From assembly GCA_021842405.1 (NCBI GenBank), contig JAKBZR010000003.1, positions 6,496 to 70,495 of the forward strand: DNA of 64,000 nt, written 5' to 3'. The notes below the pieces were generated by a model that worked only from the letters and a program-made list of their open reading frames with translations, was not told the DNA's origin and searched no databases. Shown here one piece after another: positions 24,961 through 35,487 of the stretch. Numbering within the stretch: the stretch's first letter is position 1; the number at the start of each line of letters is the position of its first letter. A program made the translations under genes and the position numbers. The stretch comes from a bacterium. GTDB taxonomy: Bacteria > Armatimonadota > Chthonomonadetes > Chthonomonadales > JAMCWF01.

Positions 24961-25044
24961 ATAGGGGGAAGAAGGAAGGGCGGGATGGGGGTCAAGAGCC
25001 ACCGCCCTGTAACACCCGCCTAAATTGCCCGTAGAACTGAACTC
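24961..25044. mobile_element. Partial MITE-like repeat, right half only
   Basis: GGGCGGGATGGGGGTCAAGAGCCACCGCCCTGTAACACCCGCCTAAATTGCCCGTAGAACTGAACTC is nearly identical to the right half of the copy at 35213-35439. No left terminus was found. Confidence 0.6.
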
Positions 25045-25169
25045 ATTCCAAGTTAAATTGGAGAATATTTGTCCATCCGAAATTCAACTGCCAGGCACAA
25101 CCCACACGTGGGAAAAACGGGTAAGCTATTTTAAAGCCATAGTATTTTGGGAGGAGATTATTCGCGCGA

Positions 25170-27482
25170 ATGTATTTAAAGCATTTCGGTTTGATCGGAT
25201 TTAGACCAATACGGTGGGCATTATTGATGCTGTTGCTGGGTATCATCAGCGACGGCGCTCTGGCATCGCAAATCAAAGCGAACGAAGTCAGGCATCCCAT
25301 CTGGGCGACTCAGTTCGCGTGGGCGCCCTCCAGCGCCTCCTTTCACATTGACTATAACTCATCCAACGCCGGCGCACCGATGAGCGGCGCCTACCAGGGC
25401 ACACCGGATGAGCTTTGGGGAGGCAAAGATACCTGGCACATCAAAACATGGAAGCTTACCGGGGTGGATTTTGCAGGGCGGCAAAACTTTGGCGCCGACC
25501 TGCGGATTGGTGGGTCAGCCGGCATTGCGGTGCATCAACTTATCCTCTCGCTTCGGCCACCGAAAATTGATCGGGAGGGCCATATTAGTGCGCAAGGCCC
25601 CAGCGCCGGCATAATTTTCGATACCGGCCGAGCCGGAACCGTTTCAACCAACACCGATGATGGGATAGTACAACTGGCCATAGGTGGAAATATCGGTGAC
25701 AGCCGATATTCCTGCCGCACTGTTAAAGGTTATAGCGCAGAGGTCTTCGCAAAGGGTGATGCGGTCAGCTACCTGTACCTGCGCTTGAATCGGCAAAACG
25801 CGCTCTACCAAGCCCATCCAAAAACCCTTTACGCCACCGTCCTATATGCCGCCACGATGCCCCCGGCTGCCTGGTCGGAGTCTGTTTTTGCCAGCTTGGC
25901 CGCTCACGGCATTCACTATGCCGAGATCAACATGGAATGGGCGGCGGTGGAACCCGGTCCGGGTCGCTACAATTTTGCGGTGCTTGATCGTACATTGGAG
26001 AATGCGGCAAAGGCTCATGTGCGGGTTATCCCGATATTTTGGTACGGGGTCTGGGGAGGCAATCCAGCGAGTTGGATCACAAAATACGATGTGGGGCCAA
26101 CCGGCGTTGTTTCCAGCGTTCCGACTTGGTGGAGCCGATACAATCGTCGCGCGTATTTCGATTACGTCGTCACGACCATCAACCACATTAAAAACAGCCC
26201 TGGGTTCGGCGGCGTTTTTTTGGATTTCGGCTGGCTGGACTACATGTGGGGGCCGGAGCCGGGTGGGAAAGGCGTAAACGGGTACGCTCCGCAGGATGTC
26301 GCCCGATTCCATCAATGGCTGCCGACGCGCTACCATTCCCTTTCCCAATTCAATCAACGCTATGGCACTCATTTCACCACCTGGAATGAGGTGCCGGCGG
26401 CTGCACCGGGAGATTCCCTCTTTTCGGTGTATCAGCGCTTTCGAAACTGGAGTGTATTCGAGACGTACGCTCGCTTGACCGCTCTGATTCGGCATGACGC
26501 TCCCAATACTCCGCTCTACTACTATTGGGGTGGTGGATTCAGCGGCGCCGGCGTCGCGTTTAATCTGCCCGACACCTTTTTCCAGCTTGCCCGCCGCTAC
26601 CGTGTGACCGTGGTGCTGGATGACGCGGATCACACCGGGCTGGCGATCCTATTCTGCAGCTTGGCGCGGTATTACAATGTGCCGCTTTTTGAAGAGTGGA
26701 CGCCGCGTTCCACCGGTTTGCACGCTGAAATCGCCGAGTTCTTGGGTCATTACGGCTTCGGTGCGCCCAAAGAGGTGGGGATGGATTTCTTCCTCTACAA
26801 CGGGGGTAAGGAATATGAGGTCGGCTACCCCCAGTATATTCGGTGGATCCCAATTTTGAGCCGAATCCACGGGTCTTATCCGCTCCAGCCGGTGGCGGTC
26901 TATGTATCTTACAAGCCGGCGTTTACCGATCCGGCCATTCTGGGCGGCATGGCCAACAAGTTGGCCAATATGTGGCGCGACCTGCCGATGGGATTCACGG
27001 TAGTCACCGATCGCGAGGTGGCGGCTGGTGTCGTTAACCTGGATCGGTTTCGCGCTATCCTGCCGCTAAACGGGCAGAGTGATCCCGCGATGGTTCATTA
27101 TGCGTCCCAAGGTGGCCACATCGTAAAGACCGCGTCGGAGCTGGCGCAATACGCTTCACCCTACCTTACCTATAACCAATCCGGCCGAATGATCGAGGCG
27201 GTGCCGACGGTGGATCGAGCGACTCGCAGTGCCTGGATCACGCTAAGCGGCTGGCTTCCGAAGCAACAATTTGACGGTGTGGCGACGATCCACCTAGCTG
27301 GTCTACAATTGCCGAATGGGCGTTACCATCTCCTCAATGCGGTGACCGGAAAGCCGATTGCCAGTTATGCCGAGCCCGGCAAGCTGGTGGTGCCGTTGAA
27401 AATCGCAGCCGGGGATTTACTGTTATGGCGGATATTGCCCGGCTCAGGCGCTACCCTGTCTCAGCCTCCCACTGCGCCGTAG
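25170..27482 (+). CDS. Secreted glycoside-hydrolase-like protein with an unassigned N-terminal beta domain and a GH42-like TIM barrel
   Basis: The signal peptide is WALLMLLLGIISDGALA. The segment IHYAEINMEWAAVEPGPGRYNFAVLDRTLENAAKAHVRVIPIFWY matches the W..EP..G.Y.F pattern of GH42/GH35-type clan GH-A barrels. Confidence 0.55.
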   Translation: MYLKHFGLIGFRPIRWALLMLLLGIISDGALASQIKANEVRHPIWATQFAWAPSSASFHIDYNSSNAGAPMSGAYQGTPDELWGGKDTWHIKTWKLTGVDFAGRQNFGADLRIGGSAGIAVHQLILSLRPPKIDREGHISAQGPSAGIIFDTGRAGTVSTNTDDGIVQLAIGGNIGDSRYSCRTVKGYSAEVFAKGDAVSYLYLRLNRQNALYQAHPKTLYATVLYAATMPPAAWSESVFASLAAHGIHYAEINMEWAAVEPGPGRYNFAVLDRTLENAAKAHVRVIPIFWYGVWGGNPASWITKYDVGPTGVVSSVPTWWSRYNRRAYFDYVVTTINHIKNSPGFGGVFLDFGWLDYMWGPEPGGKGVNGYAPQDVARFHQWLPTRYHSLSQFNQRYGTHFTTWNEVPAAAPGDSLFSVYQRFRNWSVFETYARLTALIRHDAPNTPLYYYWGGGFSGAGVAFNLPDTFFQLARRYRVTVVLDDADHTGLAILFCSLARYYNVPLFEEWTPRSTGLHAEIAEFLGHYGFGAPKEVGMDFFLYNGGKEYEVGYPQYIRWIPILSRIHGSYPLQPVAVYVSYKPAFTDPAILGGMANKLANMWRDLPMGFTVVTDREVAAGVVNLDRFRAILPLNGQSDPAMVHYASQGGHIVKTASELAQYASPYLTYNQSGRMIEAVPTVDRATRSAWITLSGWLPKQQFDGVATIHLAGLQLPNGRYHLLNAVTGKPIASYAEPGKLVVPLKIAAGDLLLWRILPGSGATLSQPPTAP

Positions 27483-27530: not shown

Positions 27531-28541
27531 TTATAGCGCCCTCAAAGGAAGTTGTGCGGTGCTCATTCTTTCAATCAGTTTGTTCGCAAGCGATTCGAAA
27601 TCTTTATGCGCCTCTTGAACGGCCTGTGCATGGCTTCCGATTGCGCCATCCGCTGGCGTGAGATGGAAAATAGGTTTTCGTGCCTCCTGCCCCATCGGTA
27701 TCAGGCTGCGATAGTGTTTCAGCGTGGCGAGACATTCATCATCCTGCGAGGGTGTAGCCGCGGCAGTGTCGTTTTGAAGCACGGCCTCATGATAAACAGC
27801 CGGCATCCGGTTAACCCATTTATCATAAGCCTTAACCGGCCGGCTGAGTCGCACACTATGCTGCTGCACAATATATCCAAGCGGTTCCATACGCCCCTGA
27901 GGTAGTGTAAAATCGGGTGATCTCCAATTATCCAGCCGCCTTTTCCAGAGGTTGCGCCATGAACGAAGGGTTGGCCCTAGGTTTTTCAATCCTTGGAGAG
28001 AAAACAGATCGGCTCCCAAGGGAATTGCAACATAATCGGAAGCAATCAGAGCGGATCGGTTTATAGCCCCGAGGTTAGGCCCCACATCCACCAGAATGAT
28101 ATCGGCGTCTATCTGTTTCGCCGCCATTTGTGCGACCTGCCAAAATGCGGTCAAGATTCGAAAAGGGCGATATAAATTAGTGTCTGCCATACTGTCAGGC
28201 CAAGATTCGGATAGTGTATCCTCAAATGAAGCCAAGGCTACATCTCCGGGAACTAAATAGAGACCTTGCGCCACTTCTTCGACATTAGGTTCCTCAATGT
28301 CCCTCACCTGAGTGAGCGGTTTTATAGCCTGATAAATCGTGGTTGGCGTTTTTTTGTTTTCCCACAGCCGCTCAAGCTCGTCTTCATCGAGATAGGCCGC
28401 GGTTAAATTCGCCTGGGCGTCCAGATCAACCGCCACAACCCTACGGCCTTGCTCAGAAAACATCCAAGCCAGATGGTATACCAGGGAAGTTTTCCCTACA
28501 CCGCCTTTATTATTGAAAAATGTCAGTACCGGGACACTCAT
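27531..28541 (-). CDS. ParA/Soj-like deviant Walker-A ATPase with a C-terminal extension of about 130 aa
   Basis: FFNNKGGVGKTSLVYHLAW carries the KGGxGKT motif, and VVAVDLDAQANLT is present. The protein is 336 aa against about 250 aa for canonical ParA. Its ATG overlaps the stop of the upstream gene (ATGA). Confidence 0.8.
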   Translation of the reverse strand: MSVPVLTFFNNKGGVGKTSLVYHLAWMFSEQGRRVVAVDLDAQANLTAAYLDEDELERLWENKKTPTTIYQAIKPLTQVRDIEEPNVEEVAQGLYLVPGDVALASFEDTLSESWPDSMADTNLYRPFRILTAFWQVAQMAAKQIDADIILVDVGPNLGAINRSALIASDYVAIPLGADLFSLQGLKNLGPTLRSWRNLWKRRLDNWRSPDFTLPQGRMEPLGYIVQQHSVRLSRPVKAYDKWVNRMPAVYHEAVLQNDTAAATPSQDDECLATLKHYRSLIPMGQEARKPIFHLTPADGAIGSHAQAVQEAHKDFESLANKLIERMSTAQLPLRAL

Positions 28542-29812
28542 TGCCGCCTCCTAACCGTTGCCAACACGTTCATTGGTTCAACTTGAAATTCGATATCGGG
28601 ATTGCCGTTTCTTTTCAATTCCGCTCTTGCGGTCTGTATTCCGATGCCGAATCGCTGCACGAACCCCATAACTTTCATAGCGTCTGCAAGATTCGGATTG
28701 CGGTAATCCGTAATTCCCGGCCGTCCGAAGTTTTCTTGGGTGACGATTCCGAACGGTCCCCCTGGATTTATGATTTCGATACGGTCATCGTACCAATGGA
28801 ATCGGACCGGTGCGTTCGTGCTCTCGTAAGTGCGGTGCATAACCGCATTGCGAATCAGTTGCTGAAGCGCCACGCGTGGATAAGCGGCGGAACGCAATTC
28901 TCGATCGGCTGAAATGATGTCAACTTTACTGAGGTTATGTGCGTCAATTTTTTCGTCTATACGACGCAATACCTGCCCCAAGGCACCATCAATACGAGCC
29001 TCATCCTGGATCGGGTCGCTCATTTCCGTCCCAGCAATCCGCAGGAATTGTATATAAGCGCCGGGAACCCAGTCACGCGGCGATATACCTAAGACCAGCA
29101 CGCCCAGTATGGTCGGAGTGGGATCGTTCACGGAGGAAATCATCCGACAAGAGGCGAGTCTCTGCTCATAAGATCGCTCGTTGGCGGCGACGACATCCGG
29201 AGCAAATGCATTGGGCAAATACTCCAGTTCGAACAGAGTTTGACTTAGTTCCGATAGATTGCATGAAGGAAGCGGTTGTATGTCGAATGGGATATCCCGG
29301 TAACGGCGTTTTTCATTCAGAATCCGCTCATCTTGTGGGTTAGCCACAGCTCGTCTTGGTCCGCTGCGAATCCATATCCTTCCACCGTATCGAACAGGGG
29401 GCGTGTCAGAGGGTTGAACCGTAACTACGGCAATGTCAGCTCCTTTGAGATTACGCTTTTCTACCAGAATGGTTGGCGGTGGGAGAATATTCCCATCAGT
29501 CTTGATGTCGGAAAGGGTACGAAGAAGCTCGTCGGTAATTATCAAACCGGAAGGAGTTCCATCATTTCTCACACCGATAAAAAGTACGCCCGCTTTACGA
29601 TGGCCCGGCAGATCGTTCGCAAAAGCACAAACTGCCTGTCTTCCGGTCTGCGGTGCGTCCCCTTTCCAGGCTTCCTTACGCTCGGCCAGGTCCGATTCGA
29701 TATCGCCCAGAAGCGTTTGAAGTTCGTCATCAGAATATATCATCATATCCTCTGCGGATTCTCCCATGTTCAATGGCGTCAGCCGGAATGTCTTAAAACC
29801 TCTCCGCCACAA
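28538..29812 (-). CDS. AlbA_2 (Schlafen-type) DNA-binding domain protein with a C-terminal HATPase_c_4 / RecG-C-like domain
   Basis: The N-terminal half reads ESDLAERKEAW...AVCAFANDLPGHRKAGVLFIGVRNDGTPSGL, which is AlbA_2-like. The C-terminal half reads NAVMHRTYES..PVRFHWYDDRIEIINPGG...YRNPNLADAMKVMGFVQRFGIGI, which is HATPase_c_4-like. The true start is probably an internal ATG at 29767 or 29746. Confidence 0.65.
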   Translation of the reverse strand: MWRRGFKTFRLTPLNMGESAEDMMIYSDDELQTLLGDIESDLAERKEAWKGDAPQTGRQAVCAFANDLPGHRKAGVLFIGVRNDGTPSGLIITDELLRTLSDIKTDGNILPPPTILVEKRNLKGADIAVVTVQPSDTPPVRYGGRIWIRSGPRRAVANPQDERILNEKRRYRDIPFDIQPLPSCNLSELSQTLFELEYLPNAFAPDVVAANERSYEQRLASCRMISSVNDPTPTILGVLVLGISPRDWVPGAYIQFLRIAGTEMSDPIQDEARIDGALGQVLRRIDEKIDAHNLSKVDIISADRELRSAAYPRVALQQLIRNAVMHRTYESTNAPVRFHWYDDRIEIINPGGPFGIVTQENFGRPGITDYRNPNLADAMKVMGFVQRFGIGIQTARAELKRNGNPDIEFQVEPMNVLATVRRRQ

Positions 29813-30040
29813 TCGCTAAATTGGCTCGTGCACCGAGATGATATATTGTAGCATCTATTACCACCCGTCCGGCGCCGGTGGGTTAAATGACTGCCGGTTG
29901 GCGGCCCAGAATCAGCCCGCCACGGCTGCTTAGGCCGCTCTCTTGCTCTCCATCGCTGGCCAGCCCTGTGCGCCATACGGCAAAACCCACCCTTACAGTA
30001 TACTAAACGGTATGAAAAATCCTGAATGGGAGCATAAGGC

Positions 30041-30971: not shown

Positions 30972-33350
30972 ATGAGTGTGAGCCGTCGCCAATTCATTCA
31001 ATCGGGGATCACGAGCGTCAGCCTGATATCAGCCGGCGCCGCTTTCAGCTCCGCCAAGTCCGATGATCGCCTCTGGCTGGAAGCAGAGGACTTAATCCCG
31101 CTTGCCTCTCCTTGGACTTACGGAACGCAGGCGGATACTTCGGGCGGTGCGTATATCTATGGCAACAAAACCAGCGGTGTGTACAAGGCGGCCGTTTCGG
31201 TGCCCTTTTCGGAGCCGGTATCCGTTTGGGTGCGAATTTTCTATGTTCAGGATCCGCGCTGGCTACAAATTACAATTGACGGCATCAAATCGCCTATATT
31301 GAGTAAATTGGGAGCGCCCGGCCAGCCCGATACGGCCGGTTGGCACTGGGTAAAGCTCGGCGTCATACAATCACCTGTATTGCAATTAACGATGGATGGC
31401 CTAGGCAGTCCGCCTTGGGACGCATGGGTGGACCTGTTCCTCCTCACCACCGATCAGCAATACGTTCCGCCGGATAACTTACCGGCAGGAGGTTACTATC
31501 CGGCTCCGCCACCGCTATCGGTTCCCGACCGCCCACTCCCCATCATCACCGGCAACCAATCGGTCTTTTATATCCAACATTCCCCGATTGGCGCATATCC
31601 CTCCGATGCGGGTGAACCGATACCGCCCGAGTCCAGCTTTCACGGTGAACACCTGCAAGGAATCAAGGCGGATGAGGACTACCAGGCGTGGGGGGCGATC
31701 GAGAAAGAGCCCGGCAAATGGGATTGGCATCATTACGACTTGATGGCACACACTCAACGAGCGGCCGGCCTTGAGTATGATACCTATCTATGGCTTCAGT
31801 GCCCACCGGTTTGGCTCCGCGAAGGAAAATTTAACATTTCCGGCGCGCCCAACCGCTGCACCCTTTTCCGCTGCGTGGAGCACAACTTGCCGACCAACAC
31901 CCTGTCCATCTTCGATCCAGCCACCGTACAGTGGTTTGAGCGCTATTACCGGCATCAAGCCGCCCATTTCGGGGAGCGGTTAGGCCGTACCTACATCGCG
32001 CTGGTCGGGCCGTACGGCGAGGGCAACTACCCCCTGCCATTCGCCGAGGATTGGTTGAACGAGGGTCACTGCCATCAGGGTTGGTGGTGCAACGACCGAT
32101 ACGCCCGCCAACAGTTTCAATCGGTGATGCAGCAAAAGTACGCCTCGTTGAGCGCATTGAACCGAACATGGAATACTCGCTTCTCTTCCTGGGAGGATAT
32201 TGCCTATCCGGATGAGCTGAAGCTGGGGCCGGCCGATATGAAACCTGCCGAATCCCGCACCGATATACCGAAGCGGAGGCACTGGCTTGATTTTATGGCC
32301 TGGTACCTGCAGGCGATACCCCATTTCAGTGAAAAGGTATACCTGGCGGCTCGGAAATATTGGCCGGCCGATCAGCTGAAAATGAAGCCGGGCGGTTCGG
32401 CAGGCGGGGTTAACCCGCTCTACTTCGGCACCTACTGCCCCGCTTACGCAAAAGTTGCGGGCAAATATCGCCTCCGCTTACAACCGGCCGATCTGGCCGG
32501 TCATATCTTCGGCGATAACTGGATCTCCAGCGCCTATCGCTTTTACGGGGTGCCGCTTTCCAGCGAACCGCCGGGGGCGCTCTCTCGCGCCGATTTTCTG
32601 CGCCGGATGTTTTCCGACGGATGCAGCGGCGCCAGCGAGCTTTTCACCTATGAATGGGAGCAGCACGCGCGCGACGCCCGGCGCTGGATCCACCTCTATC
32701 GCGGCGTTCCCTCCCGAAAGGATGCGGCCGTCTTTGCGCCGACCACCTGGTACATGATGAACGGCTCTCTTCAACCCAGCATTGACGCCACCACCGCCCT
32801 GCGTGATCTGGTGGATGTGGATGTGCTGGACGAGCTGCCGATCAGTGACGGAGCACTGCACCAGCATCGGGTGCTGATTGCCTTCCAAATGCCGGTAGTG
32901 GAGCGGCCGATCCTAGAAAAAATGCTGGATTGGGTAAGGGACGGCGGCATCTTGGCCGCTCGAGCTCCCAGCCTCCCAACCGACGTGGAGGGCAGAACCG
33001 ATCTAGGCCGTCTGCTTTTCCCCCATCCTTTGCGATCAGGCTTGAATACCTCGATCGCTCATATCGGCAAAGGCTTGACCATCCGGTTTGCGCTGGGCGG
33101 TCGCGAACAGGAGGCCGATTTTCTAAGGCTGGCTGAAAGGGCCGTTTACAATCCCTCTCACTGGATTCCGGGTCGTAAAGGGCCTCAACGAGTAGATGCC
33201 GGACTGGACGGCGTTTGGACCGCCGTATTTCCGGATCGGCTGGTGTTTTATAACTCCAATCAGCGACCGGTTGAGGCCCTTTACCGGTGGAAGGGCGAGC
33301 GCCATTCCATTAGCATCGAGGCCTGGGATATGGCCGAAGTGATCGCTTAA
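30972..33350 (+). CDS. Tat-exported glycoside-hydrolase-like protein with a CBM-like N-domain and a GH42/GH14-like TIM barrel
   Basis: The twin-arginine signal is MSVSRRQFIQSGITSVSLISAGAAFSSA. The segment WGAIEKEPGKWDWHHYDLMAHTQRAAGLEYDTYLW resembles the GH42-like motif seen in 25170-27482. Confidence 0.55.
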   Translation: MSVSRRQFIQSGITSVSLISAGAAFSSAKSDDRLWLEAEDLIPLASPWTYGTQADTSGGAYIYGNKTSGVYKAAVSVPFSEPVSVWVRIFYVQDPRWLQITIDGIKSPILSKLGAPGQPDTAGWHWVKLGVIQSPVLQLTMDGLGSPPWDAWVDLFLLTTDQQYVPPDNLPAGGYYPAPPPLSVPDRPLPIITGNQSVFYIQHSPIGAYPSDAGEPIPPESSFHGEHLQGIKADEDYQAWGAIEKEPGKWDWHHYDLMAHTQRAAGLEYDTYLWLQCPPVWLREGKFNISGAPNRCTLFRCVEHNLPTNTLSIFDPATVQWFERYYRHQAAHFGERLGRTYIALVGPYGEGNYPLPFAEDWLNEGHCHQGWWCNDRYARQQFQSVMQQKYASLSALNRTWNTRFSSWEDIAYPDELKLGPADMKPAESRTDIPKRRHWLDFMAWYLQAIPHFSEKVYLAARKYWPADQLKMKPGGSAGGVNPLYFGTYCPAYAKVAGKYRLRLQPADLAGHIFGDNWISSAYRFYGVPLSSEPPGALSRADFLRRMFSDGCSGASELFTYEWEQHARDARRWIHLYRGVPSRKDAAVFAPTTWYMMNGSLQPSIDATTALRDLVDVDVLDELPISDGALHQHRVLIAFQMPVVERPILEKMLDWVRDGGILAARAPSLPTDVEGRTDLGRLLFPHPLRSGLNTSIAHIGKGLTIRFALGGREQEADFLRLAERAVYNPSHWIPGRKGPQRVDAGLDGVWTAVFPDRLVFYNSNQRPVEALYRWKGERHSISIEAWDMAEVIA

Positions 33351-35212: not shown

Positions 35213-35439
35213 AGAGTTCAGTTTTGTGGGAGCGCATTAGGCCGACCCCCATCCTAGCCTTCCCCCTCTCAGGGGGAAGGGATCCGGACTGGGTCTTGGC
35301 GATTAATACGTCGCGCAAATCTTAGCATTCCCCCTCGCAACCGTTCCGTGCTCCTTCCCCCTCCTAGGAGAAAGGGCGGGATGGGGTCAAGACACACCGC
35401 CCTGTAACACCCGCCCAAATTGCCCGGAGAACTGAACTC
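35213..35439. mobile_element. MITE-like repeat, copy C
   Basis: The termini are AGAGTTCAGTTTTGTGGGAGC and AAATTGCCCGGAGAACTGAACTC. The core palindrome is CCTTCCCCCTCTCAGGGGGAAGG. The right half matches the partial copy at 24961-25044. Confidence 0.65.
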
Positions 35440-35487
35440 TTTCCGCCAATTCAAGCGCCATTCCTTCGGGTATAATGAATGCTACCC

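Follow-up and report, generated by a model that had tools for sequence, protein, structure and literature searches.

What two overlapping genes, one for a ParA-like ATPase and the other for a Schlafen-type protein, do together among the glycan-degradation genes of a bacterial chromosome is the question raised by the locus described here. The locus lies in a stretch of 64,000 nucleotides (64 kb; hereafter the window) of contig JAKBZR010000003.1 (positions 6,496 to 70,495, assembly GCA_021842405.1) of a member of the Armatimonadota. A preliminary description, made from the sequence alone, had offered three possible interpretations of the pair: an orphan partition-like cassette, a module of a decayed mobile element, and a nucleic-acid-sensing defence or abortive-infection pair. 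Among these the last is the best supported, in view of the adjacency of the two genes in 77 of 80 loci and of the restriction-modification (R-M) or BREX-type genes that make up about 20% of the immediate neighbours. We place at about 60% the probability that the pair is a semi-autonomous immune module, in this genome an orphaned backup, with a Schlafen RNase gated by ATP as its effector and a long ParA-type ATPase that interacts directly with this RNase. The genes and their junction are as follows.

28538..29743, minus strand: Schlatpase gene, 401 amino acids plus stop, assigned from Pfam, orthologue length and start, motifs, AlphaFold and Foldseek.
27531..28541, minus strand: gene of the long ParA-like (DIP2308-type) ATPase, 336 amino acids plus stop, assigned from partial Pfam and NCBIfam matches, invariant columns, AlphaFold and a PDB match.
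28538..28541, minus strand: ATGA overlap, in which the Schlatpase stop TGA shares bases with the ParA start ATG, seen in the sequence and in the orthologues.

Two minus-strand open reading frames (27531-28541 and 28538-29812) with a 4-nt ATGA overlap had been described earlier, and the sequence bears them out; the overlap implies that translation of the Schlatpase and of ParA is probably coupled. The TTG at 29812 was rejected as the start of the Schlatpase gene, as it only prolongs the frame through a gene relic. The start is placed at the ATG at 29743, which gives 401 residues, because the orthologues are uniformly of that length (401 residues in more than 60 orthologues).

The Schlatpase has an N-terminal Schlafen/AlbA_2 nuclease domain, a middle helical/beta region and a C-terminal GHKL-type ATP-binding domain (HATPase_c_4). 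In Pfam searches SLFN_AlbA_2 (PF04326) scored 52 bits against a cut-off of 25.3, on residues 39-153 of the TTG-start frame, and HATPase_c_4 (PF13749) 60.8 bits against a cut-off of 26. The two domains named in the preliminary description are thus present, but the first is not merely DNA-binding, being instead a Schlafen nuclease domain with an intact catalytic Ex4ExK motif (E-SDLA-E-R-K; E16, E21 and K23 in the 401-residue numbering). Across 53 orthologues E16 is retained in 52, E21 and K23 without exception, and the GHKL N-box and G-box residues N299, A300, D320, G328, G329, G332, G366 and G368 are invariant in the orthologue set. The AlphaFold model (pLDDT 90) was matched by Foldseek over its full length to PDB 3lmm (Corynebacterium diphtheriae DIP2311; E 5.6e-19), in its N-domain to the N-domains of SLFN11/13/14/12 and the SAMD9 tRNase, and in its C-domain to histidine-kinase CA domains and PDK. 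The protein is an example of the supradomain named 'Schlatpase' in bioRxiv 10.64898/2026.05.29.728809. The clade to which the window's protein belongs is devoid of the C-terminal winged helix-turn-helix (wHTH) present in other Schlatpases.

The ParA-like protein matches AAA_31/CbiA of Pfam on residues 5-197 of its 336. It carries the deviant Walker A motif KGGVGKT (K12-T18), Walker A' (D39/D41) and Walker B (D152), with K12 and K17 conserved, and its earlier identification as a deviant Walker-A ATPase of the ParA/Soj type is upheld by the motif, by Pfam and by Foldseek. The Walker A, A' and B motifs are invariant or nearly so, and many invariant residues lie in the C-terminal half as well. The Pfam model ends at position 177, leaving the C-terminal part of ParA uncovered, and an extra C-terminal region of ~130 residues had been described. 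That this region is an appended domain is contradicted by AlphaFold, which gives a single continuous ParA/Soj-type fold with helical insertions (pLDDT 91, pTM 0.91), and by Foldseek, in which PDB 3pg5 (C. diphtheriae DIP2308) is the top match over the full length (TM 0.69-0.76, 24% identity), followed by Soj/ParA structures with TM(target) of 0.75-0.79. Because the fold is continuous and 3pg5 is matched along its whole length, the C-terminal part is integral to a distinct long-ParA subfamily. A long-ParA homologue of the Frankia type (locus L190, protein P0150, 508 residues, 49% identity) has housekeeping neighbours and no Schlatpase nearby; the subfamily therefore exists outside the cassette too.

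A deviant Walker A motif and a ParA/Soj fold in a two-gene operon are also what one would expect of a system for partitioning or positioning DNA, with the AlbA_2 protein in the place of ParB. That the pair serves this purpose is now extremely improbable. The genes stand in the opposite order to parAB, no centromere-like repeat arrays were found around the pair, the site is chromosomal and has no replicon genes, and a canonical parA-parB pair is present on another contig, with ParB_N genes on contigs C148 and C136. None of the NCBIfam partition equivalogs was passed, all of them falling far below their cut-offs (for example, TIGR03453 with 77 bits against 348 and ParA_partition with 56.9 against 180). 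Furthermore, the partner is a conserved nuclease, and the ParA module is found inside R-M operons and fused to toxin domains, as described below.

The evidence for the two genes forming a unit comes from other genomes. More than 8000 clusters at 90% identity match the ParA-like protein, the best with 76-87% identity and in many phyla, and at least 576 matches were found among species-representative genomes. The best 80 loci of the species-representative genomes, covering about 15 phyla, were surveyed for adjacency, and the Schlatpase gene was found directly upstream of ParA in 77 of them, the exceptions being accounted for by a contig edge and two 5'-truncated copies. Conservation of the pair as neighbours, which the preliminary description had proposed to check, is thereby established. 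Of 64 orthologous pairs, 55 share the ATGA overlap, and the pairwise identities of the two genes are correlated (r=0.81, Mantel p<=0.001), indicating that they co-diverge. Both are under strong purifying selection, with dN/dS of 0.05-0.09 at dS of at least 1. No universal third gene is linked to the pair across the loci surveyed. The Schlatpase and ParA thus form a unit.

Fusions into a single chain were searched for with the concatenated pair as the query, only the ParA part being scored and the candidates thus limited to long proteins. At least 10 clusters of 721-760 residues combine SLFN_AlbA_2, HATPase_c_4 and ParA in the order of the genes, with a linker of 20-25 residues, and one such fusion is present on 15 contigs from independent samples. 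In one natural fusion of 760 residues (P0123) the Walker A motif reads KGEIGKT and not KGGVGKT; to judge from this substitution, its ATPase may have been altered once both proteins were tethered. In other genomes the ParA partner has gained a C-terminal domain, which is either RES (an NADase toxin), Mrr_cat (a nuclease) or an unannotated domain of ~340 residues, and in each case checked the Schlatpase gene still precedes it with a 4-nt overlap. The C-terminal domain of the 678-residue ParA fusions has no sequence relative in Pfam or PDB, and a D...ExK-like motif in it is a visual impression only.

The immediate neighbours of the ParA-positive loci (70 upstream and 81 downstream) were scanned with Pfam for associations with other systems. 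Domains of the R-M or BREX type were observed in 13 of the 70 upstream neighbours (ResIII in 9, of which 6 also carry SNF2; DUF6079 in 2; N6_N4_Mtase and DUF4391 in 1 each) and in 17 of the 81 downstream neighbours (N6_N4_Mtase in 7, DUF1156 in 6, AAA_15/21 in 2, N6_Mtase and AEP-TOTE in 1 each). Their share is about 20%, the remainder being assorted housekeeping genes. As to the suggested linkage with defence genes or integrases, the former is thus observed, but no integrase or transposase recurs in the neighbour tallies. In the intact operons the pair lies either between res and mod of a Type III R-M system or between an SNF2/NOV_C helicase gene and a DUF1156 methylase gene, the latter followed by DUF499. 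The helicase/DUF1156/DUF499 trio has been named 'BREX-related (BR) systems' (NAR 2026, PMC12839542), and intact BR cores flank the pair in loci L016, L024 and L028. In the intact helicase/methylase operons all four genes are chained by ATGA overlaps. The only locus labelled archaeal (L029, from an 'uncultured archaeon' bin) shares 96% identity in its helicase C-terminus with L028, from a metagenome-assembled genome of the Elusimicrobiota, which suggests mis-binning or a very recent transfer.

Genes embedded and translationally chained between res or helicase genes and mod genes might also regulate them. The pair would then consist of a COG2865-type 'transcriptional regulator' and an ATPase, which tune the expression or the target choice of the neighbouring R-M system without a nuclease role; proteins with AlbA_2 and HATPase_c_4 have historically been annotated as regulators, and ParA-type proteins bind DNA. 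We nevertheless consider this very improbable, since the clade lacks the C-terminal wHTH, 52 or 53 of the 53 sequences carry the Ex4ExK residues, R-M genes that could be regulated are missing beside most copies, and toxin domains (RES, Mrr) have been added to ParA.

A reciprocal sample, ascertained through the Schlatpase (80 metagenome loci, of which about 72 were counted), contains 12 intact Schlatpases without ParA, and on the tree the absences of ParA represent at least 4 independent events of loss or replacement. In the ParA-less members of the clade the Schlatpase either ends in a wHTH tail or is accompanied by a neighbouring AAA_15/AAA_21 ATPase; these members occur in ResIII, DUF1156 and GmrSD contexts. 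Among the ParA-ascertained loci, on the other hand, 5-6 have an intact ParA next to a Schlafen gene that has suffered a frameshift or a deletion, and the reverse was never seen. Taken by itself, this bias would suit a selfish addiction module of the toxin-antitoxin kind, with the Schlatpase as toxin and ParA as neutraliser (or the reverse), in which cells that lose the module die and no phage defence is provided. Such a module would also be in keeping with the tight translational coupling of the genes, with the cross-phylum spread under strong purifying selection, with the solitary position of most copies among housekeeping genes and with two loci (L010 and L104) in which the pair is intact while the BR operon around it decays. 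The asymmetry, however, vanishes in the reciprocal sample; single-chain fusions would be unusual for a labile antitoxin, and both proteins are large enzymes. Addiction is in addition compatible with a defence role. We regard it as unlikely for the pair as a whole, and a strict toxin-antitoxin model is not supported. Because intact Schlatpases without ParA have arisen through at least 4 independent losses, ParA is an exchangeable regulator and not an obligatory antidote.

The history of the window's copy can be read from three short features around the genes.

29748..29825, minus strand: 3' relic of an SNF2/NOV_C helicase gene (BREX-related 'BR' helicase), reading ANLAIVAERF*DIPADAIEHGRIRRG with an in-frame stop, found by tblastn.
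29836..29865, minus strand: 30-nt leader GGTGGTAATAGATGCTACAATATATCATCT, containing a box that resembles a -10 element (TACAAT) and an inverted repeat, AGATG...CATCT, recognised by its identity in a second copy on contig C135.
27513..27530, minus strand: 18-nt tail (TTGTTCGGAAGGTGATAC) 3' of the ParA stop, recognised from the alignment with the C135 remnant and a DNA search of the same genome.

The helicase relic, upstream of the Schlatpase gene, comprises 26 stop-interrupted codons and is 61.5% identical to residues 1188-1213 of the L016 helicase (E 3.6e-5, tblastn); a second alignment gives 58.6% identity over 29 residues. The same relic accompanies the orphan copies L010, L011, L015, L022, L027, L110 and L111, and apart from it the upstream regions show no conservation across genomes. 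Decay of a BR operon about a pair that is itself intact is visible in L010 and L104: of the helicase there is a stub or an internally deleted gene, the methylase survives in fragments or has disappeared, and DUF499 has kept only its C-terminal part. Because the helicase 3' relic is retained in its leader region, the window's pair can be regarded as the survivor of a decayed BREX-related operon, and its copy is probably the end state, in which the pair has outlived its host operon. The earlier proposal of a module of a decayed mobile element holds, therefore, for a decayed BREX-related operon and not for a remnant of a phage, plasmid or transposon. Duplicated operon-junction sequence flanks the cassette at two loci: in L010 (8991-9089) ParA is followed by another relic of the helicase 3' end, and in L112 (2342-2413) a methylase-5' relic precedes the Schlatpase gene; one might speculate on a homology-facilitated (Campbell-type) insertion at the helicase/methylase junction.

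The second cassette copy in the same genome (C135:4506-4684; locus L002 1470-1650) has suffered an internal deletion that leaves three pieces: the 30-nt leader (100% identical), the last ~45 codons of ParA (82%) and 18 nt past the stop. The 18-nt tail TTGTTCGGAAGGTGATAC is the downstream boundary of similarity between the two copies. The leader GGTGGTAATAGATGCTACAATATATCATCT, which is confined to these two copies and absent from the cassettes of other genomes, is a candidate promoter/operator of the cassette. The C135 remnant lies between a 368-residue gene and an FtsK-like gene, the start codon of which follows the remnant's GGAAGGTGA tail.

Loss of the host operon raises the prospect that the window's copy is a silent leftover, structurally intact and either unexpressed or non-functional. 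Upstream there is only the helicase stub, no consensus promoter was called, a deletion has already destroyed the other copy and no BR system is left in the genome. Against this, neither reading frame is shortened and both have the conserved residue at all columns invariant among the 53 orthologues, the leader with its TACAAT box is kept at 100% between the copies while the coding DNA is only 82% identical, and other genomes contain many orphan copies that are just as intact. A silent copy is accordingly rather improbable.

The composition of the pair is atypical and not extreme. Its GC content is 50.8% (ParA 50.4%, Schlafen gene 51.2%), compared with 56.8-58.1% in the flanking genes and 54.5% in the genome, which corresponds to the 8th percentile among genome windows of 2.2 kb. 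GC at third codon positions is 49%, against a gene mean of 64.5% (standard deviation 7), which places it near the 4th percentile of the genome, and the codon-usage likelihood lies at the 3rd-4th percentile. The low GC content reported in the preliminary description is thus correct in direction and overstated in size (47% against 62-65%). Horizontal acquisition, which had been suggested on that basis, is supported by the cross-phylum distribution and the atypical codon usage, but it was not recent, because dS is at least 1 against the nearest relatives. At such dS the high protein identity across phyla therefore reflects constraint and not very recent transfer. The flanks, compared with the 30 nearest genomes (of the same order only), are 65-69% identical and not syntenic, and the comparison yielded no empty-site boundaries; no inverted or direct repeats flank the cassette in the window.

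Elsewhere the window encodes ribosomal protein S1, PGK, PrmA, CoaE, DnaJ, a MurB-like gene, GH42-like genes and an N-methyl/DUF1559 gene, the last of which might point to a host of the PVC group; no tRNA, ParB, integrase, phage gene or recognised defence system was found in its 64 kb. The earlier remarks that no ParB, plasmid or phage genes are nearby, and that the pair sits among glycan-degradation genes, apply across the window, which is chromosomal and without replicon genes, with housekeeping genes to be added to the neighbourhood. Two GH42-like paralogues (25170-27482 and 30972-33350; 770 and 792 residues) bracket the cassette together with a 284-residue gene of unknown function, and further GH42-like paralogues occur elsewhere in the genome, on contig C74. 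A dispersed intergenic repeat of ~75 nt is found at 24974-25048 and 35366-35444, with at least 40 copies in the genome at 81-95% identity. No Rfam family matches it, its folding is no more stable than that of shuffled sequences, and it is a REP/MITE-like element. Two further SLFN_AlbA_2-like genes are present in the genome, at C7:257-424 (at the contig start) and at C64:29814-30215 (within a 443-residue reading frame, just below the Pfam cut-off).

In the immune reading, in which the module is most likely directed against phage, the Schlatpase would be the effector, an RNase of the Schlafen family with a GHKL ATP-binding domain attached, and by analogy with characterised relatives the binding of ATP would drive its oligomerisation into an active tRNA-cleaving enzyme. 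The long ParA-type ATPase would be its dedicated partner, most likely binding it directly and acting as an ATP-dependent switch or sensor that holds the nuclease silent until a cue arrives. Phage DNA or protein, or failure of an adjacent restriction system, could provide that cue, and the presumed outcome is a shutdown of translation in the infected cell, as in abortive infection. As a backup effector the cassette would typically be carried inside Type III R-M or BREX-related operons, and yet survive alone.

Several observations weigh against this proposal. About 80% of the copies, the window's included, lie among housekeeping genes and not in defence islands. ParA is dispensable in several lineages, and its role could be modulatory rather than essential. 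No DUF499 gene was found in the 97%-complete host genome, so that a partner system is not evident; DUF1156 has one marginal match there, and the tripartite BR core is absent at the locus. A search for a sigma-70 consensus promoter or a terminator around the pair gave nothing above shuffled expectation. Among the models of PADLOC-DB v2, no system has a full-length match to both proteins, in accordance with the earlier statement that the pair was not recognised as any named defence system; the partial matches are those of PDC-M28B, over a 40-residue Walker A region, and of pAgo-associated Schlafen models, on Schlatpase residues 166-415. Finally, neither of the two Slfn-HisKinase systems that were tried in E. 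coli protected against the phage panel used (PMC13056530).

The immune reading may extend beyond this cassette. We tentatively propose, with rather less confidence than for the pair itself, that long ParA-type (DIP2308-like, SIMIBI-class) ATPases are an unrecognised family of immune switch or sensor NTPases, which bind and gate a Schlafen tRNase, accrete further effectors (the RES NADase, an Mrr-type nuclease) at their C-terminus and form a semi-autonomous backup unit that is translationally coupled into Type III R-M or BREX-related operons and outlives them when they decay. If ParA-type ATPases do gate immune nucleases, they would constitute a new class of NTPases in bacterial immunity, and the pair would offer a tractable two-protein system in which to study the silencing and activation of Schlafen nucleases and the way in which backup effectors are connected to restriction and BREX-like systems. 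Schlafen nucleases are newly established antiviral effectors common to bacteria and humans, and the commonest bacterial form, Schlafen with a GHKL ATPase, has no known trigger or partner. The cassette, present in hundreds of species of about 15 phyla and sometimes in one chain with the nuclease, supplies a candidate partner.

Comparison with known systems places the Schlatpase within a described class. Schlafen proteins cleave tRNA and thereby protect against phage (Perez Taboada et al., Nat Microbiol 2026, PMC13056530), and the window's motif matches the active-site motif defined for prokaryotic Schlafen proteins (pSlfn), Ex4(E/D)xK. Slfn-HisKinase, their commonest architecture (34%) and often near R-M or other defence genes, likewise has an SLFN_AlbA_2 nuclease with this motif fused to an ATP-binding domain of the His-kinase clan; the characterised pSlfn (Ig-like and DUF262 fusions), however, are single-gene systems with a fused sensor, and no ParA-type partner is described (PMC13056530). 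The same PF04326 and PF13749 module, to which the pAgo-associated PADLOC models correspond, occurs in the SLFN-pAgo RzAgo, where the GHKL domain's binding of ATP activates the Schlatpase, and the module is exchanged with R-M systems (bioRxiv 10.64898/2026.05.29.728809). There an Argonaute core with guide RNA, fused to the module, serves as the sensor and no conserved partner is reported, whereas the candidate sensor of the window's pair is a separate, occasionally fused, ParA-type ATPase. Proteins with a Schlafen RNase and a minimal histidine kinase, with or without wHTH, have been described as auxiliary or backup effectors of BREX/BR loci in at least 1017 taxa (PMC12839542). The pair occupies the corresponding place between the BR helicase and the DUF1156 methylase in several relatives, and the window retains the helicase relic; it differs in that no ParA/MinD/Soj partner appears in that work, that the window's clade lacks the wHTH and that its host system is gone.

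The best full-length structural matches of the ParA-like protein and the Schlatpase, PDB 3pg5 (DIP2308) and 3lmm (DIP2311) respectively, are distant (17-29% identity), DIP2311 being longer (583 residues), and have no published function; nothing relevant was found in the literature on DIP2308/3pg5. Both are uncharacterised structural-genomics targets encoded by one C. diphtheriae genome, where their locus tags differ by three, and this hints that the association of ParA with the Schlatpase reaches very distant relatives. No description of a ParA partner of the Schlatpase was found in the Schlafen, BREX/BR or domain-centric discovery literature.

In the logic of its gating the pair, as proposed here, would resemble PrrC/EcoprrI and the OLD-ABC-nuclease modules PARIS and Gabija. 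In these an RNase or nuclease effector, embedded in a restriction system or adjacent to it, is gated by an NTPase or a complex of the host and set free once the primary defence comes under attack. They belong to unrelated families, and the NTPase of the window's pair is of the SIMIBI-class ParA type and not of the ABC or PrrC type.

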